A stretch of 55,658 nt of DNA from Deltaproteobacteria bacterium RIFCSPHIGHO2_02_FULL_43_33 (GTDB lineage: Bacteria > Desulfobacterota > GWC2-55-46 > UBA9637), in contig MGRL01000069.1 of NCBI GenBank assembly GCA_001798165.1, forward strand, positions 1 to 55,658, given 5' to 3'. A program made the translations under genes and the position numbers. Positions 22,307 through 49,119 of the stretch are shown one piece after another; the stretch's first letter is position 1, and each line of letters begins with the position of its first letter. The notes under the pieces are model-generated. The model worked only from the letters and a program-made list of their open reading frames with translations. It had not been told where the DNA came from and did not search any database.

Positions 22307-23759
22307 TCCAGGGATATTTCGCCAATACGACATCCGTGGCATTTTTAATAAAGACTTAACACCGCAAGCGGCTTATGCAATTGGCGCAGCATATGGAGCA
22401 TACCTTTTACGACTCAAAGGGTCAAAAGGGTTGAGGGTTAGTGTCGGCAGAGATGTAAGATTAAGCTCCCCTATCTTAAGAGATGCTTTAATAGAAGGAA
22501 TACTTTCAACAGGTATTGATGTTATAGATATTGGCGAATGTCCAACGCCCCTTCAGTATTTCTCTTTATTTCACTTGAATCTTGACGGTGGCATCATGAT
22601 AACCGGCAGCCATAATCCGCCGGAATTTAATGGATTTAAAATCAGCATCGGCCAGGAAACCATATACGGGCAGGCAATTCAGGAGTTGAGAAGGATAGTG
22701 GAAAGCAAGGGTCAGGAGTCAGGAGCCATAAGTCAGGAAAAAAAGGGGAAAATAGAATATTATAATATTGTTCCGGTGTATATTGATTACCTTAAGAAGC
22801 AGTTTTCAAAATACCCGCCGTCAAATAAACCTGCCGTTAAAGTTGTTGTTGATGCAGGAAACGGAACGGCAGGCCGTATGGCGCCGAAACTTTTGAGGGA
22901 GTTAGGTTGTGAAGTTGTTGAGCTTTTTTGCGACCCCAACGGCAACTTCCCCAATCATCACCCTGACCCCACTATCCCTGAAAATTTAAATGATTTAATA
23001 GCGGCAGTAAAAATACACAAAGCGGATTTCGGTATTGCTTATGACGGCGATGCAGACAGGATAGGTATTGTTGACGAAAAGGGGAAGATTGCCTGGGGAG
23101 ATCAGCTCCTGATAATATTTGCAAGAGATATACTTAAAAACTCAAAGCTCATCCCCTATAGCTTCAATCGGGGACAAAACTCAAAACCGACCTTTATCGG
23201 TGAGGTAAAATGCTCACAGGTTATGTATGATGAAATCAATAGGCTCGGCGGTAATGCCATTATGTGGAAAACAGGGCATTCTCTTATAAAATCAAAGATG
23301 AAAGAAACAGGCTCCGTCCTGGCGGGAGAGATGAGCGGACATATATTTTTTGCAGACAGATATTTCGGCTATGACGACGCAATTTACGCATCATGCCGAT
23401 TGGTGGAGATCCTTTCCGCGGAGCGGTTGCGCATTCCAAATGCCCCATTTTCCAGCCTCCTTTCCGGTTTGCCGGAAACCTATACAACTCCCGAAATAAG
23501 GGTTGATTGTCCTGATGAAGAGAAGTTTAAAGTGATTGACAGGCTATCTGAGGTTGTCAGTCAGGAAGATATGGGGATCAGGGGCATAATCAGGATTGAC
23601 GGCCTTAGATTAGTATTTGATAATGGGTGGGCGCTCATTCGGGCCAGCAACACACAACCTATTCTTGTTCTCAGGTTTGAAGCGACAACTGAAGAGGGGC
23701 TTGGGCAGATAAAAGAATCTGTGGAGAAAAAATTAAAGCAAGCGCTTTATCAAAAATAG
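22290..23759 (+). CDS. algC: Phosphomannomutase/phosphoglucomutase (AlgC/ManB type)
   Basis: FRQYDIRG, TGSHNP, DGDADR, GEMSGH, RASNTQP. Confidence 0.92.
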   Translation: MITTVNPGIFRQYDIRGIFNKDLTPQAAYAIGAAYGAYLLRLKGSKGLRVSVGRDVRLSSPILRDALIEGILSTGIDVIDIGECPTPLQYFSLFHLNLDGGIMITGSHNPPEFNGFKISIGQETIYGQAIQELRRIVESKGQESGAISQEKKGKIEYYNIVPVYIDYLKKQFSKYPPSNKPAVKVVVDAGNGTAGRMAPKLLRELGCEVVELFCDPNGNFPNHHPDPTIPENLNDLIAAVKIHKADFGIAYDGDADRIGIVDEKGKIAWGDQLLIIFARDILKNSKLIPYSFNRGQNSKPTFIGEVKCSQVMYDEINRLGGNAIMWKTGHSLIKSKMKETGSVLAGEMSGHIFFADRYFGYDDAIYASCRLVEILSAERLRIPNAPFSSLLSGLPETYTTPEIRVDCPDEEKFKVIDRLSEVVSQEDMGIRGIIRIDGLRLVFDNGWALIRASNTQPILVLRFEATTEEGLGQIKESVEKKLKQALYQK

Positions 23760-23802
23760 CGATTGATTTTTGGGGAAATAAATTAAATCGGAGGCTGATA
23801 GA

Positions 23803-24834
23803 ATGACTAAAAAAGCATTTATTACCGGCATAACCGGGCAGGATGGGGCGTATCTCACTAAACTATTGATAGAAAAAGACTACGAGGTTTATGGTGCCTT
23901 CAGAAGAACATCGGATTTGCATCTGAGCAGGCTAAAATTTTTAGGAGTGGATGACAAGATAAAGTTTATTCCTCTGGAGCTGCTGGAGTTTACCAATATT
24001 TACAGGGCAATGGAGAAGATACAGCCGGATGAAATATATAATCTTGGAGCGCAGAGTTTTGTTGCGCTGTCATTTGAGGAGCCGATATTTACTGCTGATG
24101 TGACGGGTGTAGGCCCTTTGAGAATTCTCGAGGCCATACGGGCGCTCAATCCAAAGATTAAGTTCTATCAGGCCTCTTCGAGTGAGATGTTCGGAAAGGT
24201 TCAGGCAATACCACAGAATGAAAAGACCCCGTTTTATCCAAGAAGCCCTTATGCAATAGCAAAACTTTTTGCCCATTGGACTACGGTAAATTATAGAGAG
24301 TCTTATAACCTTTTTGCATGTTCTGGCATTCTCTTTAATCACGAATCGCCGTTGAGAGGTTTAGAATTTGTTACAAGGAAGATAACAACCGGCGCGGCGC
24401 GTATCAAGTATGGGCTTCAGGATAAGATAGTCTTGGGAAATTTAGATACAAAAAGGGATTGGGGTTATGCCCCTGAATATGTAGAGGCTATGTGGCGTCT
24501 GCTCCAGCAACCTGAACCAGATGATTATGTCATAGCAACCGGAGAAACCCATTCTGTAAGAGAGTTTGTGGAGTTGGCCTTTGAGAAGACCGGTGTTAGG
24601 ATAGGATGGGAGGGTAAAGGTGTCGATGAAAAAGGAATAGATAAAAAAACAGGCAAAGTTGTTGTGGAAGTTTCTCCTGAATTTTTTAGGCCGGCTGAAG
24701 TGGATATTCTTATAGGAGATTATTCTAAGGCCAAAGAGAAATTGAAATGGCAGCCTAAAACCACATTTGAGGATTTGGTGAGTATAATGGTTGAGGCGGA
24801 TATCAAAATGGTTGAGAGAGATTTGAGAAAATGA
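23803..24834 (+). CDS. gmd: GDP-mannose 4,6-dehydratase
   Basis: ITGITGQDG, QASSSEMFG, YPRSPY, NHESPLRG, RDWG. Confidence 0.96.
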   Translation: MTKKAFITGITGQDGAYLTKLLIEKDYEVYGAFRRTSDLHLSRLKFLGVDDKIKFIPLELLEFTNIYRAMEKIQPDEIYNLGAQSFVALSFEEPIFTADVTGVGPLRILEAIRALNPKIKFYQASSSEMFGKVQAIPQNEKTPFYPRSPYAIAKLFAHWTTVNYRESYNLFACSGILFNHESPLRGLEFVTRKITTGAARIKYGLQDKIVLGNLDTKRDWGYAPEYVEAMWRLLQQPEPDDYVIATGETHSVREFVELAFEKTGVRIGWEGKGVDEKGIDKKTGKVVVEVSPEFFRPAEVDILIGDYSKAKEKLKWQPKTTFEDLVSIMVEADIKMVERDLRK

Positions 24835-24845
24835 GCCTTATCTAA

Positions 24846-24986
24846 CAGATTGTTGAAAAACTCAACAATCTCTGATTACACAGAGAAAAGATTAGATTAC
24901 ACAGATTGAAACTCCTTGAAATATCCGTGTAATCATCTTTTATAATCTGTGTAATCAAGGCTGTTGATGACTTTTTCAACAGCCTG
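24846..24986. mobile_element. MITE family B, copy 2 (diverged, CTAA target duplication)
   Basis: 141 bp with the same ends; CTAA at 24842-24845 and 24987-24990. Confidence 0.88.
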
Positions 24987-25009
24987 CTAAACTTGGTTGG
25001 GGGAAAATT

Positions 25010-26158
25010 TTGAGGATTGGCATAAATTCGCTTTTTCTCGTATCGGGTAAAGGCGGGGGCATAGAGAGGTATTTAAGAGGGCTCGTTGGCGGCCTGAAAA
25101 AGATTGATAAAAAAAATGAATATTTTATCTTTACCAATAGAAATTGCAGGGGTGCATTTGGATTTGGCGAAAACTTTCATGAGATATATTGCGATGTCTC
25201 TGCGGTTTTCAGGCCGGCCAAGATACTCTGGGAGCAGTTTGTCCTTCCATGGCAGCTGAAGAGGCATAAGATCGACATCCTTCTTTCTGCCGGCAACACC
25301 GCTCCTGTTGCGCATCGGTGTCCATCGGTGGCGATAATTTACGATATGATTCCGTTTATAAGGCCGGAGGGATTCAACACCATAGAGTTACTTGCATTAA
25401 AAACCTTGTTTTCGCTGACAGCAAAAACAAGTTCAAAGATTATAACGATTTCAAAATCCTCACAGGAGGAAATAGTCAAGAGATTGAAGGTGTCTCCTGA
25501 TAAGGTAGAAATTGTTTATGGGTCTTGCGATGAATATTTCAAGCCGGTTGGAGATAAAGGAAGGAGTGAACTCCAGAAGTACGGAATAAGCGGCGAATAT
25601 ATTCTTTATGTGGCTTCAAGCAGACCGTATAAAAATATAGATGGTTTGATTAAGGCATATAGAATTATGAAAGAAAGGCATCACATGGGGCACAAGCTGG
25701 TAGTCGTTGGCCTTGCAGGCAGGGCATATCCTGAACTTATGAAACTGGTGAAGGAATCGAAATTGGAGGGCGATGTCATATTCTGCGGCTTTGTCAATGA
25801 CGAAGACCTTCCCCTGTTGTATTCTCTATCATATGTCTTTGTGTACCCCTCCTTCTATGAAGGGTTCGGATTGCCGATACTGGAGGCAATGTCATGTGGG
25901 GTCCCGGTAGCGGCATCTCATGTTACCTCTATCCCAGAGGCTGTCGGTAACGCCGGTCTTCTCTTTGACCCGTATAATGTCGAAGAAATGGCAGAGGTTA
26001 TCTACCGTCTGATGATTGACAGTGGCCTGAGGGAATCATTGATACAGAAAGGGTATGAGTGGGTCAAAGAATTTTCATGGGAAAAAAGCGCAATGCGGGT
26101 TCTTGCAGTATTATCTGATACCTATACGGAAAATAGAATGTTTGGCAGGGGAATATAA
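25010..26158 (+). CDS. GT4 family glycosyltransferase
   Basis: RPYKN; YPSFYEGFGLPILEAM. Confidence 0.9.
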   Translation: MRIGINSLFLVSGKGGGIERYLRGLVGGLKKIDKKNEYFIFTNRNCRGAFGFGENFHEIYCDVSAVFRPAKILWEQFVLPWQLKRHKIDILLSAGNTAPVAHRCPSVAIIYDMIPFIRPEGFNTIELLALKTLFSLTAKTSSKIITISKSSQEEIVKRLKVSPDKVEIVYGSCDEYFKPVGDKGRSELQKYGISGEYILYVASSRPYKNIDGLIKAYRIMKERHHMGHKLVVVGLAGRAYPELMKLVKESKLEGDVIFCGFVNDEDLPLLYSLSYVFVYPSFYEGFGLPILEAMSCGVPVAASHVTSIPEAVGNAGLLFDPYNVEEMAEVIYRLMIDSGLRESLIQKGYEWVKEFSWEKSAMRVLAVLSDTYTENRMFGRGI

Positions 26159-26164
26159 AAGATT

Positions 26165-27292
26165 GTGAAGATCTGTTTTATTCTCGAATATTACCACCCC
26201 CATATCGGAGGAGTAGAATATCTCTTTAAAACGCTTACCGAAGGGTTAAGGAAAAGGGGATATGAAGTAACAGTCCTTACCAGAAGACTCAAAGGGACCA
26301 AGGGGCGAGAGTTTGTAGATGGGGTCAGGGTAATAAGGATTAGAACATTGAACAGGTATGTCTTTACTTTTTTTTCAATACCGTGGGCCATTTTTCTGGC
26401 AAGGGGTTGTGATATAATTCATACAACAACATTTAACGGCGCCTTTCCTGCGTGGGTTGCATCAAAGGTCTGGGGGATTCCGGCGGTAATCACCATCCTT
26501 GAGGTATGGCTCAAGAAATGGAGAATGCTTACGGATATGAACTGGCTTTCAGCCTTGGTGCATAATCTCCTTGAAAGGATGATATATTTGTTGAGTTTTG
26601 ATTTTTATGTAGCCATATCGCACTCCACAGAAAGGCAGCTCTCGAAAGTCGGCGTTCAGAAAGAACGAATGAAGGTGATTTACAATGGATTTGAGCATGA
26701 TTTTTTCAACCCTGAAAGGTACGATGGGGATATTGTAAGAGAACGATATGGCCTTAAGGATGCATTTATCTGTTTTTCCTGGGGAAGACCAGGGGTTTCA
26801 AAGGGCCATGAATATCTCATAATGGCTGTTCCTCGCATTGTTGAGAAAATCCCTCACGCCGTGCTTTTATTAATGCTCAGCGACAAAGAGACCTATCGGA
26901 GGAGATACCGGTACCTTATAGACCTTATTCGGAAACTTGAGGTCAGTAGCAAGGTGATACTGGTAGAACCGGTTCCCCGAGGGGAGCTTGGTTTTTATCT
27001 CAAGGCAGCTGATTGTATCGTTATACCATCTATTGCCGAAGGGTTTGGCTACGCAGCGCTTGAGGCATGTAGTATTGGGACGCCGGTTGTAGCATCGGAT
27101 ACCACATCTATTCCAGAGGTTATAGGTGGCAGATACGTCCTCGTTGAGCCGAAAAACCCTGAGGCTATTGCTAAAGGAGTTGAGAGTGTATATAAAGGCG
27201 AATACAGGACATCTGAATTAAAGGTTTTTCCCTGGGACAGAGCTGTAGCTGAATATATGGGTGTATATGATGCACTATCATCACAGGCTTGA
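26165..27292 (+). CDS. GT4 family glycosyltransferase
   Basis: PHIGGVE; GRPGVSKG; PSIAEGFGYAALEA. Confidence 0.9.
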   Translation: MKICFILEYYHPHIGGVEYLFKTLTEGLRKRGYEVTVLTRRLKGTKGREFVDGVRVIRIRTLNRYVFTFFSIPWAIFLARGCDIIHTTTFNGAFPAWVASKVWGIPAVITILEVWLKKWRMLTDMNWLSALVHNLLERMIYLLSFDFYVAISHSTERQLSKVGVQKERMKVIYNGFEHDFFNPERYDGDIVRERYGLKDAFICFSWGRPGVSKGHEYLIMAVPRIVEKIPHAVLLLMLSDKETYRRRYRYLIDLIRKLEVSSKVILVEPVPRGELGFYLKAADCIVIPSIAEGFGYAALEACSIGTPVVASDTTSIPEVIGGRYVLVEPKNPEAIAKGVESVYKGEYRTSELKVFPWDRAVAEYMGVYDALSSQA

Positions 27293-27294
27293 AG

Positions 27295-27996
27295 ATGCAT
27301 AAACTACTCGTCATAATGCCGGCCTATAATGAGGCTGAGAGCATTGGAAATATTATTCCAGCGGTCAAAAAAAACTTACCGTCTGCCGATATCCTTGTTG
27401 TCAACGACGGCTCGAAAGATGCTACGGCTGCTATTGCCAGAAGACTCGGAGCGCTGGTTACCGACCTTCCTTACAATATGGGCATAGGCGCTGCTATGCA
27501 GACAGGTTACAGCTATGCTGCATTAAATAACTATGATATAGCAGTACAGGTGGACGCAGACGGCCAGCATCCTCCTGACCAGATACCTTTCCTGATACAA
27601 CCGATTATGGAACAAAAGGCAGATATGGCTATTGGTTCAAGATTCCTTGGAAATGGCAATTATCGTCCTTCTTTGGCAAGAAATATCGGTATAAGGATTT
27701 TTTCCATGTTGTTATCTGCAATAACGAGTCAGAGGCTGACTGACACTACCTCTGGCTTCAGGGCTGTTAATAAAGGAGTAATAAAATTCTTTGCCAAAAA
27801 TTATCCTGAAGATTACCCGGAGGTAGAAGCTATTGTATTGCTTCGCAAGGCAAGGTTCAATATAATAGAAGTTTCTGTAAAGATGGAGGCAAGAATCGGT
27901 GGAAAGTCTTCCATTACACCTTTACATGCGGTTTATTATATGATAAAGGTGTTGCTGGCTGTATTGATAGATATTTTGAAAAAGGTGGAAAGGTAA
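27295..27996 (+). CDS. GT2 glycosyltransferase, DPM1-like (polyprenol-phosphate glycosyltransferase)
   Basis: MPAYNE, VNDGSKD, VDADGQH, GSRF, DTTSGFRA; paired with DUF2304. Confidence 0.85.
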   Translation: MHKLLVIMPAYNEAESIGNIIPAVKKNLPSADILVVNDGSKDATAAIARRLGALVTDLPYNMGIGAAMQTGYSYAALNNYDIAVQVDADGQHPPDQIPFLIQPIMEQKADMAIGSRFLGNGNYRPSLARNIGIRIFSMLLSAITSQRLTDTTSGFRAVNKGVIKFFAKNYPEDYPEVEAIVLLRKARFNIIEVSVKMEARIGGKSSITPLHAVYYMIKVLLAVLIDILKKVER

Positions 27997-28007
27997 AGGA
28001 AGGAAGG

Positions 28008-28070
28008 AAACAGGTTAAGGTCAAGATTGAGGCTGAGGATTTCTAAACCTTAACCTTAGCCTCAACCTTA
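28008..28070. repeat. Head-to-head hexamer array (GGTTRA / TYAACC type)
   Basis: ACAGGTTAA GGTCAA GATTGA GGCTGA GG...AACCTT AACCTT AGCCTC AACCTT. Confidence 0.75.
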
Positions 28071-28079
28071 TAAAGCGCT

Positions 28080-28457
28080 ATGCACTCTATCCAGATTGTC
28101 GCCATTATTATTAGCCTTGGTATTTTGATAAGCGTTGTAGACCTTATAAGACGGGGCATGCTGAAGGAACAGTATGCTATCCTATGGCTTGCATCAGCAG
28201 TTGTTTTATTGGTGCTCTCCATGTGGAGGGGGCTGTTAGATAATATTGCCCGCGCAACAGGTATCGCATATCCGCCGTCTCTTCTCTTTTTGGTGGCATT
28301 CCTGTTTCTTCTTTTAATCGTGCTGCACTTTTCCGTAATTATATCCAGCTTGAGCGAAAAAAACAAAAAACTCAGCCAGGAGATTGCAATATTCAAAACA
28401 TTTTTTGAAGAACATAAAAAAGAAGGAGGAAAAAATGAGCATAGAAAAGGTTTTTGA
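28080..28457 (+). CDS. DUF2304 family membrane protein
   Basis: Three TM helices, LKEQYAILW, GIAYPPS, LSQEIA; follows the DPM1-like GT2. Confidence 0.82.
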   Translation: MHSIQIVAIIISLGILISVVDLIRRGMLKEQYAILWLASAVVLLVLSMWRGLLDNIARATGIAYPPSLLFLVAFLFLLLIVLHFSVIISSLSEKNKKLSQEIAIFKTFFEEHKKEGGKNEHRKGF

Positions 28458-29673
28458 AAGTAAAAGGTTTCACCTGTGGGCAGGTCTGCTGATTGCAATA
28501 TCATCGCTTATAGTATATTCCAACACATTTCATGCCAGCTTTCACTTTGATGACACGCCGCAGATTGTGGAGAACTACAGCATAAGAAATTTAAGCAATT
28601 GGTTTGATATAGTGAGAGGGCAGCGCGGCATAGCAATGTTAACCTTTGCCATAAACTACGCCATAGGAGGGCTTAATGTTGCCGGCTATCACATCGTAAA
28701 TCTTGCTATTCATATCACAAACGGCATATTGGTATATTTTCTCATTTTTCTTACCCTTGGAACTATTGACCTGGGGACAGATTTCAAATCTGATAAAGCC
28801 AAAAAGATAGCTGTCTTTACTGCGCTGCTCTTCGCTGTTCACCCTATCCAGACCCAGGCTGTAACATACATTGTCCAGAGGATGGAAGCCCTTGCATCAA
28901 TGTTCATGCTCATCGGCATTTTATTTTTCGTAAAAGGGATAAAGGCATCAAACACATCTGCAAGGATACTCCTCTATGGGGCTGTAGCTGTTTCCTATCT
29001 TCTCGGTTTCTATTCCAAGGAGATGGCCATAACCCTGCCTGCCCTTATATTTCTCTATGACTACTGCTTTATCGCAGGCAATGATATAAAGAAACTCGCG
29101 CCCCGGCTGCCGTTATATGTTGTCTTGCTCATAATGCTGGCCTTTTTGGCTGCGCCAACCTTTACCGGCCTCAAAGAGACGCCTGGTGAATCAGTAGGTT
29201 TTGGCGTTCAGAGCATAACACCAAAGGAATATTTATTTACCCAGTTCAATGTGCTTATATATTACATCACCCTGCTCTTTGTGCCGATAAACCAGAACCT
29301 TGATTATGACTTTCCTATATCAAAAGGGCTTTTTGAGATTCCTGCTGTAAAGGACGGCACCATATTAAACTTCCCTATTCCGCCGGCCTTTATATCCCTC
29401 ATGATTATTCTATCTATTGTTGGGGTTGCCATTTACCTTTTTACACGTCACGCACAACGTATCACACAACATGGCCGTTTAATCGCCTTTTTCATATTGT
29501 GGTTTTTCATCATTCTTTCCCCTACATCAAGTTTTATACCGATAATAGATGTAATATTTGAGCACAGGCTCTATCTTGCCTCTGTCGGCTTTTTTGCGCT
29601 GTTCAGCCTTGCATTGGACAGATTTTTTGAATATCTGGAGCAAAGAAAGGATAAGGTTGGGGTTAAGGTGTAG
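28435..29673 (+). CDS. TMTC-like GT-C membrane glycosyltransferase, membrane half only (no TPR tail)
   Basis: FHFDD, YHIVNLAIH, LLFAVHPIQTQAVTYIVQR, SKE, EHRLYL; ends one helix after EHRLYL; GGAGG RBS. Confidence 0.8.
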   Translation: MSIEKVFESKRFHLWAGLLIAISSLIVYSNTFHASFHFDDTPQIVENYSIRNLSNWFDIVRGQRGIAMLTFAINYAIGGLNVAGYHIVNLAIHITNGILVYFLIFLTLGTIDLGTDFKSDKAKKIAVFTALLFAVHPIQTQAVTYIVQRMEALASMFMLIGILFFVKGIKASNTSARILLYGAVAVSYLLGFYSKEMAITLPALIFLYDYCFIAGNDIKKLAPRLPLYVVLLIMLAFLAAPTFTGLKETPGESVGFGVQSITPKEYLFTQFNVLIYYITLLFVPINQNLDYDFPISKGLFEIPAVKDGTILNFPIPPAFISLMIILSIVGVAIYLFTRHAQRITQHGRLIAFFILWFFIILSPTSSFIPIIDVIFEHRLYLASVGFFALFSLALDRFFEYLEQRKDKVGVKV

Positions 29674-29711
29674 GCTGAAAATTTCTTTACGCTTAACCTT
29701 ATAACCTTATT

Positions 29712-30353
29712 ATGTCAGCCTTAAGACTTACAATTTCTACAACCCTGCTGCTTCTTCTTTCCATTGCAACTTTTGAGCGAAATTACGTCTGGAATGACCG
29801 TATTGTCTTCTGGTCGGATGTGGCGCTAAAATCTCCCCACAGGACCCGCTCCCACAATAATCTGGGGTCTGCCCTCATAGCGGCAGGCCGCTGTGGTGAT
29901 GCCATGCCTTCACTCATGCAATCTGTTAAGATTGACCAATGGTATATAGAGCCGCATTACAATCTTGCTATCTGCTATGTTAAAAAGAATCGTTTTGACG
30001 CTGCAATACCTGAACTTGAAAAGGTGATTAGTATAAATGTTGTCTTGAAAAAAGGGCATTATGGGGTTTCAACAGCGCCCAGATTTGAGATGCAGGCGCA
30101 CTCAACTCTGGGCAACATATACAATATGAAGGGTATGTTTGATAAGGCTGTTTTCCATTTCCAAGAGGCGTTAAAATTATCGCCAAAAGACGCTGTTACC
30201 CGTTTCAACCTTGCATTGACATACGAGACGATGGGGATGTTAAAAGAGGCTAAGGCAGAGCTTGAAGAGGTTTTAAAAATAAACCCCATGGACGAAGGGG
30301 CAAAGAGGGGCATAAAAAGGCTTGGGGCGGCTGCTGATATGGGCAAACAGTGA
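29712..30353 (+). CDS. TM + TPR protein (TMTC C-terminal-half type) 1
   Basis: TM helix, then RNYVWNDRIVFWSDVALKSPHRTRSHNNLG, then TPRs. Confidence 0.82.
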   Translation: MSALRLTISTTLLLLLSIATFERNYVWNDRIVFWSDVALKSPHRTRSHNNLGSALIAAGRCGDAMPSLMQSVKIDQWYIEPHYNLAICYVKKNRFDAAIPELEKVISINVVLKKGHYGVSTAPRFEMQAHSTLGNIYNMKGMFDKAVFHFQEALKLSPKDAVTRFNLALTYETMGMLKEAKAELEEVLKINPMDEGAKRGIKRLGAAADMGKQ

Positions 30354-30366
30354 ATTCCGGCGGGTT

Positions 30367-30615
30367 TAATACAAACGCAATAATTAACAGTTTGTTGAAA
30401 AACTCAACAAACTCCGATTACACGGATAAAAGATTAGATTTCACAGATTAAAACCCATTGAAATATCTGTGTAATCGTTTTTCCTAATCTGTGTAATCAA
30501 GGCTGTTGATGCCTTTTTCAACAGCCTGTTAATTTGTAGGGCAAGCCTTCATGCTTGCTTATTTTGCAGGGCTAAAGCCCTGCCCTACGTCAATTTATTT
30601 AATTCGTCTGTATTA
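30367..30615. repeat. REPIN-like family C copy interrupted by MITE B
   Basis: Outer IR TAATACAAACG...CGTCTGTATTA; GTAGGGCAAGCC...GCCCTGCCCTAC core. Confidence 0.75.
30388..30528. mobile_element. MITE family B, copy 3 (TTAA target duplication)
   Basis: Appears identical to 6935-7075 by eye. Confidence 0.9.
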
Positions 30616-30738
30616 GTAACCGGCAGACGGCAGACAAGAAAAGATTCAAATGCAGCAGCATTGGTGTTTCGATATATTTTTATTGCATATTCCCGATTTT
30701 TTATGATAGGATAAGCAACGAATTAAATAATGTTACAT

Positions 30739-30788
30739 GTAGGGCGAGGCTTTAGCCTTGCTTAAGCAACCCTAAAGGGTTGCCCTAC
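30739..30788. repeat. GTAG-family REP doublet (core only)
   Basis: GTAGGGCGAGGCTTTAGCCTTGC-TTAA-GCAACCCTAAAGGGTTGCCCTAC. Confidence 0.8.
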
Positions 30789-30797
30789 TTGATTTTT

Positions 30798-31418
30798 ATG
30801 ACATCAAAAACAACAAAAAAAAAGCCAATCTCTGAAGATGCTATAAAGGTCCTTATTGCAGAGGATAATGCTGTTTCCAGAAAGTCTCTCTCCTCTCAGC
30901 TTGAATCACTCGGTTTTAATGTGGTTGCTGCGGCAGCCACAGGCGAAGAGGTATGCAGCCTCTTTCCTGAGCTTAAGCCAGACCTCATCATAATGGACAT
31001 TAAAATGCCGAAGATGGACGGCATAGAGGCTGCAAAGGTTATCACCAAACATGCCTCTATCCCCATAATCCTTGTAACAGGCCATTCCTCTGAGACTGTG
31101 ATTAGCAGGGCAATGGAGAGCGGCGTCGGCGTATTTGCCTATCTTTTAAAACCGATAACCAAAAAAGACCTGCTTCCTGCCATAAAGGTCGCCTTTGCCA
31201 GGCATAATGAATTTCAGACCCTAAAAAGCGAGTTCAGCGATTTAAAGGATGCCCTTGAGACAAGAAAGCTGGTTGAACGGGCAAAGGGCATTCTCATGAA
31301 ACGTCTGACCATCCCTGAGGATGAGGCATTTAAACTCCTCCAGACCCAGTCCCAAAAAGAAAACAAAAAACTTAAAGAAATAGCAGAGACCGTAATAACC
31401 GCAAGCAGGATGCTATAA
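30798..31418 (+). CDS. ANTAR-domain response regulator (REC-ANTAR; NasT/EutV/PdtaR type)
   Basis: IAED, IIMDIKMPKMDG, LLKP receiver motifs; LETRKLVERAKGILM...EDEAFKLLQTQSQ ANTAR domain. Confidence 0.93.
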   Translation: MTSKTTKKKPISEDAIKVLIAEDNAVSRKSLSSQLESLGFNVVAAAATGEEVCSLFPELKPDLIIMDIKMPKMDGIEAAKVITKHASIPIILVTGHSSETVISRAMESGVGVFAYLLKPITKKDLLPAIKVAFARHNEFQTLKSEFSDLKDALETRKLVERAKGILMKRLTIPEDEAFKLLQTQSQKENKKLKEIAETVITASRML

Positions 31419-31499
31419 ATAAATACAGACTATGGGCGATAGGCAATAGGCTATGGGTAAAGAGGACGATATATAAATACAGGCAATGGGCTATGGGCA

Positions 31500-31898
31500 A
31501 TGGGTAGAAAAGGCTTTAAAGATTTGATTGTCTGGCAAAAGGCTAAAGACCTCGCAGTTGCTATTTATAAACTGAGTGGAGGAGGAGATTTGGGGCGTGA
31601 TTTTGGCTTACGAGATCAAATTAGACGCAGCGCTGTAAGCATTGCCGGTAATCTGGCTGAAGGAGATGAACGAGATACCGACAAAGAGGCAGTTCATTCT
31701 TTCTATATTGCGAAAGGTTCCCTTGCTGAATTACAGAGCCAGATTCTAATTGCTTATGAGATTGGATATCTTAAAAAAGAGGTTTATGAGAATATTAGCG
31801 CAGATTACAGTGAATTGGGCAAAGTGATTGGTAAACTCATAAAATACAGGCGAGGGGCTATGAAGGCAGGCAATAGGCAAGAGGCGATAGGGCTATGA
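31500..31898 (+). CDS. Four helix bundle protein (23S rRNA IVP / bAvd-like family)
   Basis: FKDLIVWQKA, FGLRDQIRRSAVSIAGNLAEG, IAKGSLAEL; flanked by GGCWATR heptamer arrays. Confidence 0.9.
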   Translation: MGRKGFKDLIVWQKAKDLAVAIYKLSGGGDLGRDFGLRDQIRRSAVSIAGNLAEGDERDTDKEAVHSFYIAKGSLAELQSQILIAYEIGYLKKEVYENISADYSELGKVIGKLIKYRRGAMKAGNRQEAIGL

Positions 31899-31956
31899 GT
31901 TTTCCTATCGCCTATCGCCTGTATTTTTATATTCTTAATCTTTTTTAATTTTTTTC

Positions 31957-31984
31957 TTGACATATTTTAATTTTTAGGTAGAAT
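31957..31984 (+). promoter_or_regulatory. Sigma70 promoter of the cytochrome gene
   Basis: TTGACA (31957-31962), 16 bp spacer, TAGAAT (31979-31984); AT-rich upstream tract. Confidence 0.72.
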
Positions 31985-31994
31985 AGACCTTAAG

Positions 31995-32074
31995 TAAGCG
32001 CTGATGGCGGTGCTTATATTTAAAGTGCAGAGGTGATGGCGCCTCAGTGGCCGTAAGGCTTTTTGAGGTTTTTT
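31995..32074 (+). promoter_or_regulatory. ANTAR target RNA: twin hexaloop hairpins overlapping an intrinsic terminator
   Basis: TAAGCGCT-GATGGC-GGTGCTTA and GAGGT-GATGGC-GCCTC; terminator CCTCA...GGCC-GTAA-GGCT...TGAGG-TTTTTT shares the 3' arm of hairpin 2. Confidence 0.85.
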
Positions 32075-32121
32075 ATCTTTTAACCCAAGGCTTCGGTCTA
32101 AAAAATAAAAAGGAGGAAGGT

Positions 32122-33411
32122 ATGAAAAGACTTATTTTAATAGCCTTATTAGCACTTGGCTTAGGGTTTGGATTGACCCTGATGGCATCAACACCATCAA
32201 TGGCAGTTCACAAAGGTTCAGGCGATTTGACTTGCGGCAGCTGCCATACAATGCACAGCAGCCAGGGCGGCACATCTAGTCCTTCAATGGGCGGCGCAAC
32301 CGGCGCCCTCATCCTGCTGAGAAACTCGCTGGTCACAGGCAGAGAAACCATCCATCAGCTTTGCCTTCAGTGCCATGCAGCAGCTGGAACGCAGGGTGGT
32401 GTTCAGTTTAACGCCTGTCCCGGGACAGCTTGCACAACCCCGCCAAAGGTGTTGCTTACCTCAACCGATGCGTGGAATACGACTAAGGACTTTTCTACAA
32501 TCGGAGCAGGCGGCGACTTCCAATTTGTTGGAAGTTATGTTTCCGGTAGCTATAATAGCACTCAGGATGGCGGAACCGCACTCGGAAGAGGCCACAGCAT
32601 AGGAGGGACAGTCATCGCACCTCCAGGCAACGGTTCTACAGTGGGTACGATTGCAACGTTTAGCTGCACAACCTGCCATGACCCGCATGGAACATCAGCT
32701 ACGACCTCAACTATTAACATATACAGAAACCTTAAGGGAGGTATAGTGGCAGGGGCAACTGATAAAAATTGGTCAAATATGCTGACTAACGGTAATATAG
32801 GCACTTCTTATGTAGGCGGTCCAACTGGCGCTTCAGATGATAACAGCCTGGGAACAACCCCTACAGGTGGTTCTGGTATTGCCGCTTCAAACAATATTTG
32901 GCCGACGTATAGGTCATCTGGCACCCAGAATTCATATAGCACCAGTACTACTCCGCCAACCCTTGGTGGAACTGCTTTAACTGGTCTAGACGGCACCGGC
33001 TATACCCTTATGTCTGCATTCTGCGCCCAGTGCCATAGCTTATGGCATGAAAATGTAACAACAGGAAACAAGACCGGCTCTGATTGGAATAGGCACCCTG
33101 TGGACAACAGGATTTCAGATACCTCTTCTGCTTCAGGCGCTGGCGTAACCATTACAGACTTTACCCACTACAATACCAATATCGCAGCAGGTTTTAAACT
33201 CCCAGCTGCTAATGATGCTGGTAGTGCATTCTACTACGCAGATAACTCAGGCGACAAGGTTTTCTGTCTGTCTTGTCACTTTGCGCATGGCAGCCCATAC
33301 TATGACATCCTGAGATGGGATTACATAGCTCAGATAGATGCTGCTGGTGGCAGCCAGACCGGCAACGGCGTGGCATCAGTCAAAGGTTGTCAGCAGTGCC
33401 ATAACAGGTAA
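32122..33411 (+). CDS. Secreted hexaheme c-type cytochrome, OmcS-like
   Basis: Signal peptide; six CxxCH (CGSCH, CLQCH, CTTCH, CAQCH, CLSCH, CQQCH); OmcS-like motifs CxxCHTMH, GGDF, CxxCHDPHG, RHP, CLSCHxAH; AGGAGG RBS. Confidence 0.87.
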   Translation: MKRLILIALLALGLGFGLTLMASTPSMAVHKGSGDLTCGSCHTMHSSQGGTSSPSMGGATGALILLRNSLVTGRETIHQLCLQCHAAAGTQGGVQFNACPGTACTTPPKVLLTSTDAWNTTKDFSTIGAGGDFQFVGSYVSGSYNSTQDGGTALGRGHSIGGTVIAPPGNGSTVGTIATFSCTTCHDPHGTSATTSTINIYRNLKGGIVAGATDKNWSNMLTNGNIGTSYVGGPTGASDDNSLGTTPTGGSGIAASNNIWPTYRSSGTQNSYSTSTTPPTLGGTALTGLDGTGYTLMSAFCAQCHSLWHENVTTGNKTGSDWNRHPVDNRISDTSSASGAGVTITDFTHYNTNIAAGFKLPAANDAGSAFYYADNSGDKVFCLSCHFAHGSPYYDILRWDYIAQIDAAGGSQTGNGVASVKGCQQCHNR

Positions 33412-33420
33412 TACGCTGTA

Positions 33421-34182
33421 ATGTCATTGCAAGGAACTTTAGTTCCGAAGCAATCTGAAAAAGGGGGAAGGGAAACCTTCCCCCTTTTTTTCTTTATAGC
33501 CATCCTCGTTTCCTTTGTTTCCTTTCAAAGAAATATCGCATGGGATGAGGAATTGAGCATATGGCAGGATGCGGTTCGTAAGTCCTCTCATAAGGCAAGA
33601 CCACATAGCAACCTTGGCGCGGCCTTTGGAGGTAAAAGGCTTTTTCATGAGGGGGCAAGAGAATCCCGCATCGCCATATACCTGAACCCGTATCTTGCAG
33701 AGGCGCATAACAATCTTGGGAATATATATCTGGAGATGGGGTTGGCGCAGGATGCCTTGAAGGAGTTTCAAGATGCCGTTGAATTAGAGCCGTCGTTTGC
33801 AGTTGCCCATTACAATGCAGGGCTTGCATATAAGGCCATTGGCCTCATGGAAGAGGCTCAAAAGGAGTTTAAGAAGGCAGTTGAAATAAGGCCGTTCTAT
33901 GCAAAGGCCCATAATGAACTTGGCATGCAATATATGACAAATGGCATGTATGAGGCTGCTGTAACGGAATATAACAAGGCGCTGGAAGGCGATAATAGGT
34001 TTGCCCCAACGTATAATAACCGCGGGGTAGTTTATGCGCGGTTAGGCATGTGGGACAATGCCATCAAAGAGTTTCAAAAGGCCATGAGCATAGACCCTGC
34101 ATTAACCGAAGTAGAGAAAAACCTGAAAAAGGCGTATGCCAATAGAGAGGCGGCTGTCAGGAAGGCCGTAAAAAACCCTTGA
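33421..34182 (+). CDS. TM + TPR protein (TMTC C-terminal-half type) 2; start uncertain
   Basis: RNIAWDEELSIWQDAVRKSSHKARPHSNLG followed by TPRs. Confidence 0.78.
   Translation: MSLQGTLVPKQSEKGGRETFPLFFFIAILVSFVSFQRNIAWDEELSIWQDAVRKSSHKARPHSNLGAAFGGKRLFHEGARESRIAIYLNPYLAEAHNNLGNIYLEMGLAQDALKEFQDAVELEPSFAVAHYNAGLAYKAIGLMEEAQKEFKKAVEIRPFYAKAHNELGMQYMTNGMYEAAVTEYNKALEGDNRFAPTYNNRGVVYARLGMWDNAIKEFQKAMSIDPALTEVEKNLKKAYANREAAVRKAVKNP
33458..33491 (+). terminator. Intrinsic terminator after the cytochrome gene
   Basis: AAAAAGGGGGAAGG-GAAA-CCTTCCCCCTTTTTTT. Confidence 0.8.
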
Positions 34183-34203
34183 ACATATAAAGATTCTGCT
34201 GTA

Positions 34204-34308
34204 TATACTGAAAGCAATAAATAACTTGTAGGGCAACCCTTTAGGGTTGCTTATTTATGCAGGGCTAAAGCCCTGCCCTACGGCAAGTTATTTATTGCCG
34301 TTACTATA
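34204..34308. repeat. REPIN-like family C copy
   Basis: Near-identical to 2997-3099. Confidence 0.85.
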
Positions 34309-34367
34309 AAAAGAAATTTCACCCCTACCATCTCCTTTTACCAGAAAATGCTTCATATTCACATTAC

Positions 34368-34425
34368 CGTAACGTTGCCCTTTATAGGCAACGGTTTTTC
34401 GTTGGGGATAAACCCCAACACTACG
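34368..34425. repeat. REP doublet family D
   Basis: CGTAACGTTGCCCTTTATAGGCAACG...CGTTGGGGATAAACCCCAACACTACG; related copy in the opposite orientation at 49673-49727. Confidence 0.7.
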
Positions 34426-34494
34426 AAAATCCAATTTTCATGCCCTCCGCCAAAGGCGGATGAGCTACCAACTCATGTGGGTTTAGCGGCAAAT

Positions 34495-34524
34495 TTGACA
34501 TTGCGCACGTCTTTAATATATAAT
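34495..34524 (+). promoter_or_regulatory. Sigma70 promoter, probably giving a leaderless transcript
   Basis: TTGACA at 34495-34500, 18 bp spacer, TATAAT at 34519-34524; ATG 6 nt later with no SD. Confidence 0.7.
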
Positions 34525-34530
34525 TAAAAA

Positions 34531-35862
34531 ATGAAGCAAATCTATATAAGGTATATCGGCATTTTTTTGCCTTTCCTGTGCATCCTGCTTTGGTCTCCTC
34601 TTCCTGCTATGGGGGCCACCATACAATATCTTTTCAGTATAGACGTTATGGCAAGCGGACAGCCCTTTGTCGGCGTAAGCGCCCTCCTTATAGATAATAA
34701 AAACAGTGAATTGTATGCCCTGGATGATGGGAACAGGCGGCTGGTTATAATGAATCTGGAGGGGGTATTCTTGTATCAATTCACCTATACGGATGCGGGA
34801 ATTAAGAATATGCCTATAGGTATAGCAGTGGCTGATGACGGGAAGATATATATTGCTGAAGGAAAGAGGGTGGTAGTTGTCGATTACAGGGGTATGTATG
34901 ACCACGATATGTCCCTCTCTACTATTCCGGATGCAAATGAGATAAACATACAGTCCGTAGCCATAGATGGCAATACCGTCTACCTCGGCACTGTTGGCAG
35001 GGTAGTGATGATGGATAAAAAAGAAGAGAAATTTATTGCTGAATTTAAAGAGGGTCTGGGACAAAACAACTATATTGCCATGGATTACAACGGGATGTAT
35101 ATAAGAGATCCGGGCGCCCTTATTATCTTTCACCTGGCTAAGGACGGCAAAGTCCTTGGCCACTTTGGCAAGATATCAGGCCTTGCAGGTGGTTTTAGCA
35201 TGACCGTGGATATGGCAGTGGAAAGGAAGAAGGGGTGGGTTATTGTATTAGATATTAACAGGGCTGCAACTATATTTTTTGATAGAGAAGGCAATTTCCT
35301 CTTTGAGTTTGGCGGCCCCGAGCTCTTTAAATGGCCGAGGGCTGTTGCAGCAGACGATGAAGGCAGGATATATGTTACGGATGGAACAGGCAAGATAAGG
35401 GTTTTTCAGATAATAGAAGACGCCCCTGTAATTAAAGAAGCCAAACCCGAGTCAAAACCGGAAATACCATCTGCTGCCCCTCCTCCTGTATCTGAACCCA
35501 AAAAGGATGAGGTGCAGAAGATAGTTGAAGAAGAGGGAAGGCTGCTGCCTCTATTTTTTGCCATAGACAGCGCAAAACTTAAAAAGGCCGACCTTTTAAT
35601 CCTTGATAAAAATGCGGTATGGCTTAAGAAAAACCCTGACGCAAAGATAAATGTGAGAGGTTATGCAGACGAACGCGGCACAGATGAATACAATCTTACA
35701 CTCTCTAAAAAAAGGGCAAAGGCAGTAATGGACTACTTTGTAAAACAAGGCATAGACTCAAAGAGGCAGAAATTTATAGGCTATGGCAAGGAGCTTACAA
35801 CAGACAAGAGTGAAACGGGATTTGCAAGGTCAAGAAGGGTAGATTTTCTTGTAGTAAAGTGA
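34531..35862 (+). CDS. Exported NHL-repeat beta-propeller fused to an OmpA/Pal-like peptidoglycan-binding domain
   Basis: Signal peptide; PIGIAVADDGKIYI, WPRAVAADDEGRIYVTD; Pro-rich linker; GYADERGTDEYNLTLSKKRAKAV...SRRVDF. Confidence 0.85.
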   Translation: MKQIYIRYIGIFLPFLCILLWSPLPAMGATIQYLFSIDVMASGQPFVGVSALLIDNKNSELYALDDGNRRLVIMNLEGVFLYQFTYTDAGIKNMPIGIAVADDGKIYIAEGKRVVVVDYRGMYDHDMSLSTIPDANEINIQSVAIDGNTVYLGTVGRVVMMDKKEEKFIAEFKEGLGQNNYIAMDYNGMYIRDPGALIIFHLAKDGKVLGHFGKISGLAGGFSMTVDMAVERKKGWVIVLDINRAATIFFDREGNFLFEFGGPELFKWPRAVAADDEGRIYVTDGTGKIRVFQIIEDAPVIKEAKPESKPEIPSAAPPPVSEPKKDEVQKIVEEEGRLLPLFFAIDSAKLKKADLLILDKNAVWLKKNPDAKINVRGYADERGTDEYNLTLSKKRAKAVMDYFVKQGIDSKRQKFIGYGKELTTDKSETGFARSRRVDFLVVK

Positions 35863-35880
35863 TAACCGCATGGACAGGGT

Positions 35881-36357
35881 ATGAAGATTTTACAGTTGTT
35901 TGGCAATATTGCAATGATTGTATTGATAGGATGTTACTCCATGGCAGCTGTAAAAAGAAACGTCGCATGGGGAAACGAGCATATCCTGACTACCGATAAT
36001 ATTTATAAGTCTCCCGGCAAGGCCAGACCCTATCTCAATCGCGGACTCTTCTACTTTAACAAAAACAGGATAGACGATGCCATCAGGGAATACCTGATAG
36101 CGCTTCAGCTTGACCCTGATTATGCCTATGCGCGCAACAATATCGGGGTTGCCTACTACAACAAAGGGTATCTGGATGCCGCAATAAAAGAGCTTACAGA
36201 GGCCATACGGCTGTCCCCTGGTTATGCCGAAGCGCATTATAACCTTGGGATAGCATATGGAGAAAAGGGTCTTGCCCAAGAGGCGTATATAGAGATAAAA
36301 AAGGCCATGGAACTTAATAAGAATCTTGCCGAAGAATTAAAATATTCAAAACCATAG
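35881..36357 (+). CDS. TM + TPR protein (TMTC C-terminal-half type) 3
   Basis: RNVAWGNEHILTTDNIYKSPGKARPYLNRG followed by TPRs. Confidence 0.82.
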   Translation: MKILQLFGNIAMIVLIGCYSMAAVKRNVAWGNEHILTTDNIYKSPGKARPYLNRGLFYFNKNRIDDAIREYLIALQLDPDYAYARNNIGVAYYNKGYLDAAIKELTEAIRLSPGYAEAHYNLGIAYGEKGLAQEAYIEIKKAMELNKNLAEELKYSKP

Positions 36358-36375
36358 GCATATCAGGATAATTAC

Positions 36376-37104
36376 ATGGAAGGCTCTGTGACAATAAAAA
36401 CACTATTTGCGTTTACCTGCATAATCCCCTTCCTTGCCTTTGTATCTTTCCAGAGAATAGCCGTTTATAAAAATGAGTTCACCCTCTGGGCAGATGTAGT
36501 CAAAAAATCATCTTTAAAGGCCAGGCCGCATAATAATCTTGCAGCCGTATATAAAGACAAAAAGATGTTTAATCTTGCGCTCAACGAATACATGGAAGCA
36601 ATAAGAGTTAACCCCGGGTATGCAGCCGGCCATGGTAATCTTGGAAGTATGTATTATGAACTGGGTAGACTTGATGAGGCTGAGACGGAAGTTAAATTAG
36701 CCCTGACTGCTAATACCCACTTTAAGGATCTGCTCCATAGACTACTGGGTCTTATATATATAAAAAAAGGGGCGCTTGATGAGGCGGCGAAGGAATTTAA
36801 AGAGGCTATAGCCATGATACCAAATTATCCAGATGCCAAGCGAAATATTGCAGTAATTTTCACTAACGAAGGATTTTTATACGCTGATAAGGGAGATTTT
36901 GAACGCGCCCTCGTGCTCCATAGAATGGCAGTTTTTGCAGATTCAGGATATCCTGATGCCCGCTATGGGCTTGCCCAGGCATACGAAGCTTTTGGCCAAA
37001 GGGAAGAAGCGATAAAACAGTGGCAGGAATACCTCAGATTAGCGCCATCAGATGAGCCGTTTAGGAAGGATGCAATGAAACATCTGGAGAGGTTGTGGGA
37101 ATAA
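36376..37104 (+). CDS. TM + TPR protein (TMTC C-terminal-half type) 4
   Basis: RIAVYKNEFTLWADVVKKSSLKARPHNNLA followed by TPRs. Confidence 0.82.
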   Translation: MEGSVTIKTLFAFTCIIPFLAFVSFQRIAVYKNEFTLWADVVKKSSLKARPHNNLAAVYKDKKMFNLALNEYMEAIRVNPGYAAGHGNLGSMYYELGRLDEAETEVKLALTANTHFKDLLHRLLGLIYIKKGALDEAAKEFKEAIAMIPNYPDAKRNIAVIFTNEGFLYADKGDFERALVLHRMAVFADSGYPDARYGLAQAYEAFGQREEAIKQWQEYLRLAPSDEPFRKDAMKHLERLWE

Positions 37105-37109
37105 TAGCG

Positions 37110-37700
37110 ATGCCTTTAAAATCCGAGCTGTTCTTTTTTGCCGCAGTAGGTATTATTTTTTCTATTGTCACATTTCAGAAAAATGTTTTATGGGGAAGCG
37201 AAAAAGGCCTATGGCTGGATATTCTGCAAAAATCACCATCCAAGGCGCGGCCGCACACTAATCTTGGCATGGCCTATGACCTTGATGGCAATATAGCCAA
37301 GGCAGAAGATGAGTATAACAAGGCTATACAATTAGAGCCTGATTATCTTGCCGCATATGCTCCTTTGGCAGTTATGTATGGAAAAAGAGGAGATGTGGAT
37401 AGAGCTATTGAGATGTTTTTGTGGCTTATACCAAGATTGCCTAATCGGGACCCCAAGGCACATACAGGTTTGGGGGTTGCTTACATGATAAAGGGGCTTT
37501 TGAAAGATGCAGAAAGGGAATTTCAGGAGGCATTAAAGATAGATCCAAATTATGAGATAGCACACTACAATCTCGCTGAGATTTATGGGCAGATGGGTTT
37601 AAAGGATGAGGCATTAAAGCATTATAAAATATTTATTGAAAATGCGCCGCCTGCGCAAAAGGAACTGGTTATAAAAATAAAAACAAACTATGGGTTATAG
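37110..37700 (+). CDS. TM + TPR protein (TMTC C-terminal-half type) 5
   Basis: KNVLWGSEKGLWLDILQKSPSKARPHTNLG followed by TPRs. Confidence 0.82.
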   Translation: MPLKSELFFFAAVGIIFSIVTFQKNVLWGSEKGLWLDILQKSPSKARPHTNLGMAYDLDGNIAKAEDEYNKAIQLEPDYLAAYAPLAVMYGKRGDVDRAIEMFLWLIPRLPNRDPKAHTGLGVAYMIKGLLKDAEREFQEALKIDPNYEIAHYNLAEIYGQMGLKDEALKHYKIFIENAPPAQKELVIKIKTNYGL

Positions 37701-48766: not shown

Positions 48767-49119
48767 TCAAATAATTCTGCTTCTTATCTTTTTTGGAGTG
48801 ATAACAACAAATTTGCCGTATAGAGAAACACCTTGCTCATTGAGAACCTTTATTAAAGAATCTGAAATATTCTTTAGCTCTAACGGTCTGTATCTCAAGA
48901 AAATTACACTTACATTTCTTTATGCGTAAAAACCCACTCTCCAAAATCACTATCCTCTGTCAATAGTAAGGCATCGTGCCGTTTTGCCAACTCTAAAACC
49001 TCTTTATCCTGAATCCCCTGATAATCCTTCAATACGGAGATAACTTCAAAACCCTTACTTATCAAGTCTCTGACCATTCTTAAGTCAACGCTCTCGTCAG
49101 CAAGGATTTTAAGAGGCAA
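48767..49119 (-). pseudogene. DUF5615 PIN-like toxin, frameshifted
   Basis: ILADESV...LLTEDSDFGEWVF; frameshift near 48915; continuation VSVIFLR...FVVITPKKIRSRII* in another frame. Confidence 0.78.

Follow-up and report, generated by a model that had tools for sequence, protein, structure and literature searches.

We describe a short RNA leader on contig MGRL01000069.1 of Deltaproteobacteria bacterium RIFCSPHIGHO2_02_FULL_43_33, a stretch of 55,658 nucleotides (nt), hereafter the window, from a genome of 2.19 Mb (G000; numbers with G, C, and L are our handles for genomes, contigs, and loci). The leader lies between the gene of a response regulator with REC and ANTAR domains, here called type A, and the gene of a hexaheme c-type cytochrome homologous to OmcS, and it is composed of two small hairpins, the second of which overlaps an intrinsic terminator. 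Leaders of the same plan stand upstream of homologous cytochromes in related genomes, and we regard it as very probable that they represent a conserved attenuator of nanowire-type cytochrome genes. We favor, with less assurance, the reading in which this attenuator is an ANTAR-type switch that works by transcription attenuation and is read by the neighboring type A regulator, and we judge this reading to be probable.

A twin-hairpin leader overlapping a terminator precedes an OmcS-like gene

The locus contains the following elements, in order of transcription.

30798..31418, + strand: REC-ANTAR response regulator (type A), the proposed trans-acting antiterminator (Pfam Response_reg, E value 1.5e-27, 96.4 bits; ANTAR, 5.8e-22, 77.7 bits)
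31957..31984, + strand: sigma-70-type promoter, TTGACA-16-TAGAAT, with 11/12 consensus positions
31994..32017, + strand: hairpin P1, with hexaloop GAUGGC at 32003-32008 and U.G and C-G closure
32030..32045, + strand: hairpin P2 (putative antiterminator), GAGGU/GCCUC, with hexaloop GAUGGC at 32035-32040 and U.G closure
32041..32074, + strand: predicted intrinsic terminator, stem 32041-32069 (CCUCA..UGAGG, inner GCC/GGC) and U6 at 32069-32074
32112..32116, + strand: ribosome-binding site GGAGG, 5 nt 5' of the ATG, read from the sequence
32122..33411, + strand: hexaheme c-type cytochrome, OmcS homologue, 429 amino acids (aa), with six CXXCH motifs and a signal-like N-terminal segment

The original prediction for this DNA had described a promoter at 31957-31984, twin hairpins with GATGGC loops running into an overlapping terminator that ends in T6 at 32074, a REC-ANTAR gene upstream with a four-helix-bundle insert in between, and an OmcS-like product. 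All of these were recovered: the promoter where it had been placed, the hairpins and the terminator both in the sequence and in its predicted fold, the regulator and the insert by matches to Pfam and TIGR02436, and the cytochrome by a profile match to OmcS that is given below. The promoter also ranked best among the 8 promoter-like sites in a scan of 30500-33700. A simple terminator scan did not list the leader terminator because its inner stem breaks the rule of the scan.

The 3' arm of P2 is also the 5' arm of the terminator, and the two structures are mutually exclusive. Folding of 31990-32080, a check that the original prediction had proposed, gave P1 plus the terminator as the minimum-free-energy structure (-33.7 kcal/mol; z score, -3.41; 2 of 200 shuffled sequences were equal or better). 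When evaluated separately, the combination of P1 with the terminator amounted to -24.3 kcal/mol and that of P1 with P2 to -15.4 kcal/mol, the energy of the terminator in the window being -15.3 kcal/mol. The default state would therefore be "off," and P2 would need an outside stabilizer, which is the logic of protein-mediated antitermination. Judged from its sequence, the terminator is presumably functional.

The twin pattern TGATGGCG occurs once in the 2.19-Mb genome and is absent from the reversed control. A scan with Rfam 15 placed no family on the window leader, on its paralogous and orthologous leaders, or on the nitrogen-type leaders described below, and gave subthreshold chance matches elsewhere only. 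In particular, the Rfam model of the GEMM-I riboswitch had no match at an E value of ≤10 in 30000-34000, in line with the contrast that the original prediction had drawn with the GEMM-I leader of Geobacter omcS. Other ways of looking at the hairpins were discarded. Scanning for any pair of hexaloop hairpins with a T run behind it was uninformative (343 A..G.. pairs and 323.A.G.. pairs genome-wide), and a loose regular expression for P2 gave 85 matches versus 19 to 34 in shuffled sequences. Loops of the CsrA-type GGA kind were rejected on account of the many loops without GG, and a hammerhead-like resemblance of CUGAUGA was dropped since the remaining core is absent, as judged by eye.

Short contigs from four runs of one study, labeled metatranscriptomic and probably derived from DNA, match the cytochrome gene at 32574-32802 and 33142-33391 without differences. 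None of the contigs from these runs covers the leader, and they are uninformative on termination.

The leader is conserved upstream of homologous cytochromes

We built a covariance model, R1, from 12 leaders (seed alignment A2). At an E value of ≤1, it found in the window's own genome the leaders of contigs C69, C65, and C59 and one leader on C48. Matches were present in 20/61 related genomes (E ≤ 0.01), in 24/96 genomes of the class (E ≤ 1e-3), and in 5/151 genomes of a phylum-wide sample (E ≤ 1e-3), only 1 of them outside the class being convincing. At cytochrome loci from named public records, R1 matched upstream of the gene and on its coding strand in 20/77 cases (E < 0.01), many of these loci being from the same genomes as the related set and thus not independent of it. 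The distant homologues of this 77-locus set (best-segment identity of ≤30%) had no R1 match at an E value of <0.01, and the distant homologue at L141 had a minus-strand match inside the gene only (E = 0.39).

The region upstream of the homologous cytochromes follows a common plan, with a TTGACA promoter, P1, a short linker, P2, and a terminator. The TTGACA box stands at a matching distance 5' of many orthologous leaders. P1 is variable in sequence, with C-G and U.G closure around a GAYGRN loop, whereas P2 is conserved in sequence as GAGGU-RAYGRN(N)-GCCUC, and the 3' arm of the terminator reads UGAGG(C) and is followed by a U run.

The original prediction had also proposed to compare the leaders of orthologous cytochromes for covariation, and compensatory changes were found there and in the paralogues as well. 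In seed alignment A2 (12 rows), 96.5% of the cells are paired and 25 are changed on both sides, a value reached in 0/500 shuffles; slid controls gave 37 to 63% paired cells. In P1, four pairs (alignment columns 7-24 to 10-21) show changes on both sides in 4 to 7 of the 12 rows. Alignment A5, made from 39 R1 hits, has 93.8% of its cells paired and 74 changed on both sides, again with 0/500 shuffles as high. These figures come from seed hairpins supplied by a hairpin finder and, for A5, from an alignment fitted to the model, and the relatives are not independent of each other. P2 is nearly invariant (99% of the cells paired), its sequence being kept in 39/39 model hits. On these alignments, P1 is supported by covariation and P2 by conservation rather than by covariation. 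The 3' arm of P2 also pairs downstream, directly 5' of the U tract, in 23/27 leaders as determined by script, about 19 of which we judged convincing.

Some leaders depart from the plan. The leaders L054 (G008:C24) and L170 (G192:C222), which precede OmcE-like genes, have no terminator but an A/G-rich tract extending up to the ribosome site; these leaders may work on translation or by way of Rho. In G002:C45, two tandem leaders (L039/L063, at 50618-50663 and 50758-50808) lie 140 nt apart before one OmcS-like gene. Each has its own promoter-like box; in the upstream leader, P1 contains a mismatch and a terminator is not clearly recognizable.

The leader has the layout described for ANTAR targets but lacks A1

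We then compared the leader with published ANTAR targets. Such targets are described as two small hexaloop hairpins with A at position 1 (A1) and G at position 4 (G4) of the loop, separated in the eut case by a linker of 5 to 12 nt, the second hairpin lying inside a terminator (PMC3369931, PMC8934654), and the eut consensus is given as AGCAANGRRGCUY (PMC3369931, PMC8934654). The window leader contains two tandem short stem-loops, both helices of which are supported in relatives. Both loops have 6 nt with G at position 4, and the linker between P1 and P2 has 12 nt (32018-32029), within the range of 5 to 12 nt reported for eut. Together with the overlap of P2 and terminator, the leader thus has all the features of this description except A1. 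The architecture on which the original prediction had based its proposal, namely, two hairpins, G4, the linker, and the shared arm, stands, with G and not A at position 1. Shifting the register of the loop to obtain A1/G4 fails, as this would leave G opposite G at the closing position.

Among the 39 R1 hits, hexaloops are found in 29 cases for P1 and in 13 for P2, the other 26 P2 loops having 7 nt. A2 and G4 are found in 39/39 P2 loops, and the P1 hexaloops have G4 in 29/29 and A2 in 28/29. The linker has 5 to 12 nt in 31/39 hits.

The leader precedes OmcS-type and OmcE-type cytochromes

The window cytochrome has six CXXCH motifs in the order of OmcS. A search of the PDB with the single sequence (phmmer) did not retrieve OmcS. 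Profile A3, built from 24 full-length relatives, aligned with entry 6EF8 at an E value of 1.7e-20 over profile positions 35 to 407 of 418, five heme motifs being aligned; the sixth pair, the C-terminal CxxCH of both proteins, falls in a second stretch of the alignment that is below threshold. The histidine of the CHTMH motif is invariant in 24/24 relatives and aligned with OmcS, and we take it to be a heme ligand shared between OmcS subunits. The profile match supports the assignment of the window cytochrome as an OmcS homologue, which does not imply that it forms filaments. Entries 6EF8 and 7TFS are the OmcS and OmcE nanowires, respectively (PMC12954529).

Homologous cytochromes are found in 20/61 related genomes, often in several copies. 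The window's own genome has three full-length OmcS-like paralogues (on C69, C65, and C59), all of which are preceded by an R1-type leader. The leader also precedes tetraheme cytochromes of the OmcE type, whose match to 7TFS has an E value of 2.5e-26 and is nearly full length in G012 and has an E value of 8.8e-13 in G192; the five leader-bearing proteins of this type (G004, G008, G012, G025, and G192) form one family. That two structurally unrelated nanowire families, OmcS type and OmcE type, are found behind one leader suggests, at the sequence level, that they are coregulated. Other genes behind the leader encode a cytochrome with three CXXCH motifs (G015), a DUF4382/YncE-like beta-propeller lipoprotein (own genome, C48, and G005), and a DUF7948/SBBP protein (G023). 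In G032:C1 (L052) and G014:C14 (L159), the leader, with a clean terminator, stands before the genes of a PocR-GAF-GGDEF protein (Pfam, for the G032 protein) and of its 54%-identical homologue, respectively; these targets hint at a link of the regulon with cyclic-di-GMP signaling. The leader targets are mostly extracellular or periplasmic electron-transfer proteins.

Two ANTAR regulators, each beside its own class of leader

The best PDB relatives of the window REC-ANTAR protein are Rv1626 (9.4e-41) and EutV (6WSH; 5.8e-31), and alignment with both proteins showed that its receiver keeps the DxxxMD region of the acceptor Asp. Each of the 61 related genomes has 1 to 4 ANTAR genes, among which type A orthologues are 49 to 81% identical to the window protein and a paralogue, here called type N, is 36 to 47% identical. 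Type A is a single-copy gene found in 87/96 genomes of the class. The roles of EutV residues in RNA contact have been reported, with Met172 acting as a "plug" inside the hexaloop (PMC8934654). Type A keeps the contact residues Arg142, Lys143, Lys149, and Glu160, the aromatic residue at position 164 being Phe. In 17/17 type A sequences, Gln replaces EutV Met172 and Asn replaces Arg175, whereas Met and Arg are present in type N as in EutV and Rv1626. Changed contact residues that match a changed closing pair, loop position 1, and loop length would make a tidy, unproven story of specificity.

In the window's own genome, the type N gene lies on contig C112 beside glnB-like and amtB-like genes, presumptive names that we assigned by eye from size and sequence. 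Two leaders with canonical A1/G4 loops follow it (C112:7380-7480 and 10330-10410; L173 and L174). The leaders of type N have P1 loops such as AUCGCA and a P2 that reads AAGGC-AAAGRC-GCCUU, with a terminator. The P2 16-mer AAGGCAAAGRCGCCTT has 27 sites in 19/61 genomes and none in the reversed control. Most of these sites (22/27) share the contig and strand of a type N gene and lie no more than about 5 kb downstream, from which it follows that in this lineage an ANTAR gene typically lies just upstream of its own targets. None of the 27 sites is on a contig that bears type A.

We then looked into the position of type A relative to the leader. In four genomes from three families (G000, G002, G012, and G029), the type A gene is located 5' of a cytochrome gene that bears the leader, both being on the same strand. 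The distance between type A and the leader in the window is 0.57 kb. In G002, type A ends at 49001 and the leaders are at 50618 and 50758, with small open reading frames (ORFs) in between; in G012, type A ends at 14967 and the leader of an OmcE-type gene is at 16672, with an NHL-propeller gene in between. In G029, type A (ending at 37371) and the cytochrome (37721) are directly adjacent, and a leader missed by R1 was seen by eye and by script.

Proposed mechanism and evaluation of the alternatives

In the mechanism that we propose, a strong and probably constitutive promoter would start an RNA that begins with P1. By default, the terminator (32041-32074) would fold and transcription would stop 5' of the cytochrome gene. 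Once phosphorylated by a kinase, the neighboring type A REC-ANTAR protein would bind the loops of P1 and P2 as a dimer; this would hold P2 closed, withhold the 5' arm of the terminator, and allow readthrough into the OmcS-like gene. The same leader would control a lineage-wide set of OmcS-type and OmcE-type cytochromes and a few other exported or signaling proteins. Adjacency in four genomes and analogy with known ANTAR systems point to type A as the binding protein, and its intact REC domain suggests that binding would depend on phosphorylation. We also considered a broader version, with two orthogonal ANTAR systems, one for nitrogen (A1/G4 loops; Met/Arg) and a rewired type A (Gln/Asn) that would read U.G-closed GAYGRN(N) loops as the master switch of an OmcS/OmcE nanowire regulon; we offer it tentatively, as having somewhat less than an even chance.

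Several observations weigh against a switch read by type A. As to the loops, position 1 is G in both window loops, the canonical A being absent, and G also prevails in the relatives (28/29 P1 hexaloops; G in 28, A in 9, and U in 2 of the 39 P2 loops), while mutations of A1 impaired control by EutV (PMC3369931). P2 loops of 7 nt are frequent (26/39), and the fold of the free RNA pairs loop G1 with C6, leaving an AUGG tetraloop. No recognizable terminator is present in 4/27 leaders and in G192, and none of the R1 hits in G027, G037, and G013 looks real. A canonical-type model, R2, built from 18 nitrogen-type leaders and overspecific because its seeds were chosen by an exact 16-mer, found no cytochrome leader at an E value of ≤10, and R1 scores the nitrogen leaders at just 6 to 18 bits; these cross-model scores separate the two leader classes, without deciding on ANTAR membership.

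As to the regulator, just 4 of the approximately 25 genomes with a leader show the adjacency, two of these 4 being from one family, and no sensor kinase adjoins the gene. Several families instead have, downstream of the regulator gene, an element resembling a thiamine riboswitch and then a gene of about 450 to 470 aa (L071, L072, and L074 to L077); the label of thiamine pyrophosphate riboswitch was given to these spacers by eye and is presumptive. Type A is present in 87/96 genomes and the leader was detected in 24. With type A so widespread, its presence in 23/24 leader-bearing genomes (the exception being 88% complete) is consistent with the proposed pairing but poorly discriminating, and its presence without a detected leader in most genomes means either that it has other targets or that R1 is too narrow.

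The same observations bear on a different explanation, in which the attenuator is real but is read by another factor (an RNA-binding protein, a small RNA, or a small ligand) and the ANTAR gene is adjacent through synteny only. The synteny upstream of type A (GT2-DUF2304-membrane protein-TPR) is indeed kept in the relatives whatever lies downstream, the regulator is far more common than the leader, and the loops depart from the ANTAR consensus in position 1 and in length. However, twin hairpins with like loops, a linker of 5 to 12 nt, and P2 in a terminator are the defining layout of ANTAR targets (PMC3369931), a length of about 45 nt would be short for an aptamer that binds a ligand, the adjacency is repeated across three families and involves two unrelated families of cytochromes, and the paralogous ANTAR gene adjoins analogous leaders. 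We consider another reader unlikely.

A leader that works without any protein, as a constitutive partial terminator, a 5' stabilizing hairpin, or a responder to temperature or transcription speed, would agree with a free-RNA fold that is simply P1 plus the terminator and with the absence of the terminator in some relatives. It has difficulty with loops in which A2 and G4 are invariant while the stems vary, which argues for recognition of the loops and not for stability alone, and with the conservation of the alternative P2 pairing. This makes it, in our view, very improbable. Least likely of all is that type N, or both paralogues, read the leader and that the cytochromes follow the nitrogen status: both leader classes share RAGGY-loop-GCCUY with A2, G4, and R5, and published ANTAR regulons are mostly nitrogen linked (PMC3369931), but the classes are cleanly split (C-G and A1 versus U.G and G1) with poor cross-model scores, most nitrogen-type sites (22/27) stand beside type N and none is on a type A contig, and the paralogues differ at two RNA-contact positions.

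Comparison with known systems

If read by type A, the leader would fit best as a variant class of ANTAR targets that serves a new regulon. The closest counterparts are the eut leaders of Enterococcus faecalis with EutV/EutW, which likewise have a REC-ANTAR regulator, two small hairpins with A2 and G4, a linker of 5 to 12 nt, and P2 as the 5' base of the terminator (PMC3369931, PMC8934654). The present leader differs from them by G1, U.G closure, and, in relatives, often 7-nt P2 loops; type A differs from EutV by the Gln and Asn at the Met172 and Arg175 positions and by the lack of an adjacent cognate kinase; and the targets here are extracellular cytochromes instead of ethanolamine genes. The nitrogen ANTAR regulons of NasR/NasT and AmiR share the attenuation logic, and a canonical one is present in the same genome on C112, but the cytochrome targets have no evident nitrogen tie. 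The nearest respiratory precedent is the control of nap and nos by NasT in Bradyrhizobium, which concerns nitrogen oxides (PMC6759348).

In Geobacter sulfurreducens, a GEMM-I riboswitch before omcST is also an RNA leader that controls OmcS after initiation (PMC6456294). The Geobacter element is a ligand-binding aptamer, whereas we propose here a twin hairpin of the protein-read type; by analogy, the leader would be a functional replacement of the GEMM-I riboswitch. ANTAR-target RNAs of mycobacteria are likewise twin hairpins outside nitrogen metabolism (PMC8164766, bioRxiv 660928). Those RNAs are mainly translational and overlap start sites, in contrast to the mostly terminator-based leader described here, and the terminator-less relatives in G008 and G192 might work as they do.

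A full-text literature search found no paper that joins ANTAR with OmcS. It found nothing substantive joining ANTAR with multiheme or c-type cytochromes or with extracellular electron transfer, with the limit that the genome-wide Tables S1/S2 of PMC3369931 could hold cytochrome-linked hits; the main text of that paper has 0 occurrences of "cytochrome" or "Geobacter."

A cytochrome regulon would widen ANTAR control beyond nitrogen, ethanolamine, and the lipid-related targets of mycobacteria. The regulation of nanowires is known mainly from Geobacter, through cyclic-dinucleotide riboswitches and transcription factors; if our reading is true, extracellular electron transfer in an uncultured groundwater lineage would be under the control of a two-component signal that acts at the RNA level and not of cyclic dinucleotides. 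Model R1 provides a sequence tag with which additional components of the electron-transfer apparatus could be located in uncultured bacteria. Moreover, two paralogues in one genome, each with its own class of leader, would amount to a natural experiment on ANTAR-RNA specificity, for which the candidates are, in the RNA, the closing pair and loop position 1 and, in the protein, the positions of Met172 and Arg175.

Other features of the locus

Two further elements flank the leader and the cytochrome gene.

31500..31898, + strand: four-helix-bundle gene of the 23S rRNA IVS (intervening sequence) type (PF05635, 23S_rRNA_IVP, 2.8e-33; TIGR02436, 5e-33)
33457..33490, + strand: strong terminator that ends the monocistronic cytochrome unit (15-bp stem and T run)

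The four-helix-bundle gene is an insert between the regulator and the leader and not a part of the switch. It is flanked by short repeats of the type GGCTATGGGC, ATAGGC, and CTATCGCC (window 31419-31499 and 31860-31935). In G002, the corresponding spacer carries a DUF5618 gene among other small ORFs, together with inverted repeats like repetitive extragenic palindromes (REP), and that in G029 has no insert. The spacer between regulator and cytochrome has the appearance of a region into which small elements insert.

Upstream of the regulator is a sugar-nucleotide and glycosyltransferase cluster (window 22290-30353) with PGM/PMM, GDP-mannose dehydratase, two GT4 proteins, GT2, DUF2304, a 429-aa membrane protein without a Pfam match, and a TPR protein. 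The terminator at 33457-33490 falls within the listed start of ORF 33421, which therefore probably starts later. Downstream of the cytochrome, the window (33421-37700) contains a series of TPR proteins with similar N-terminal segments and an NHL-repeat/OmpA protein (34531-35862).

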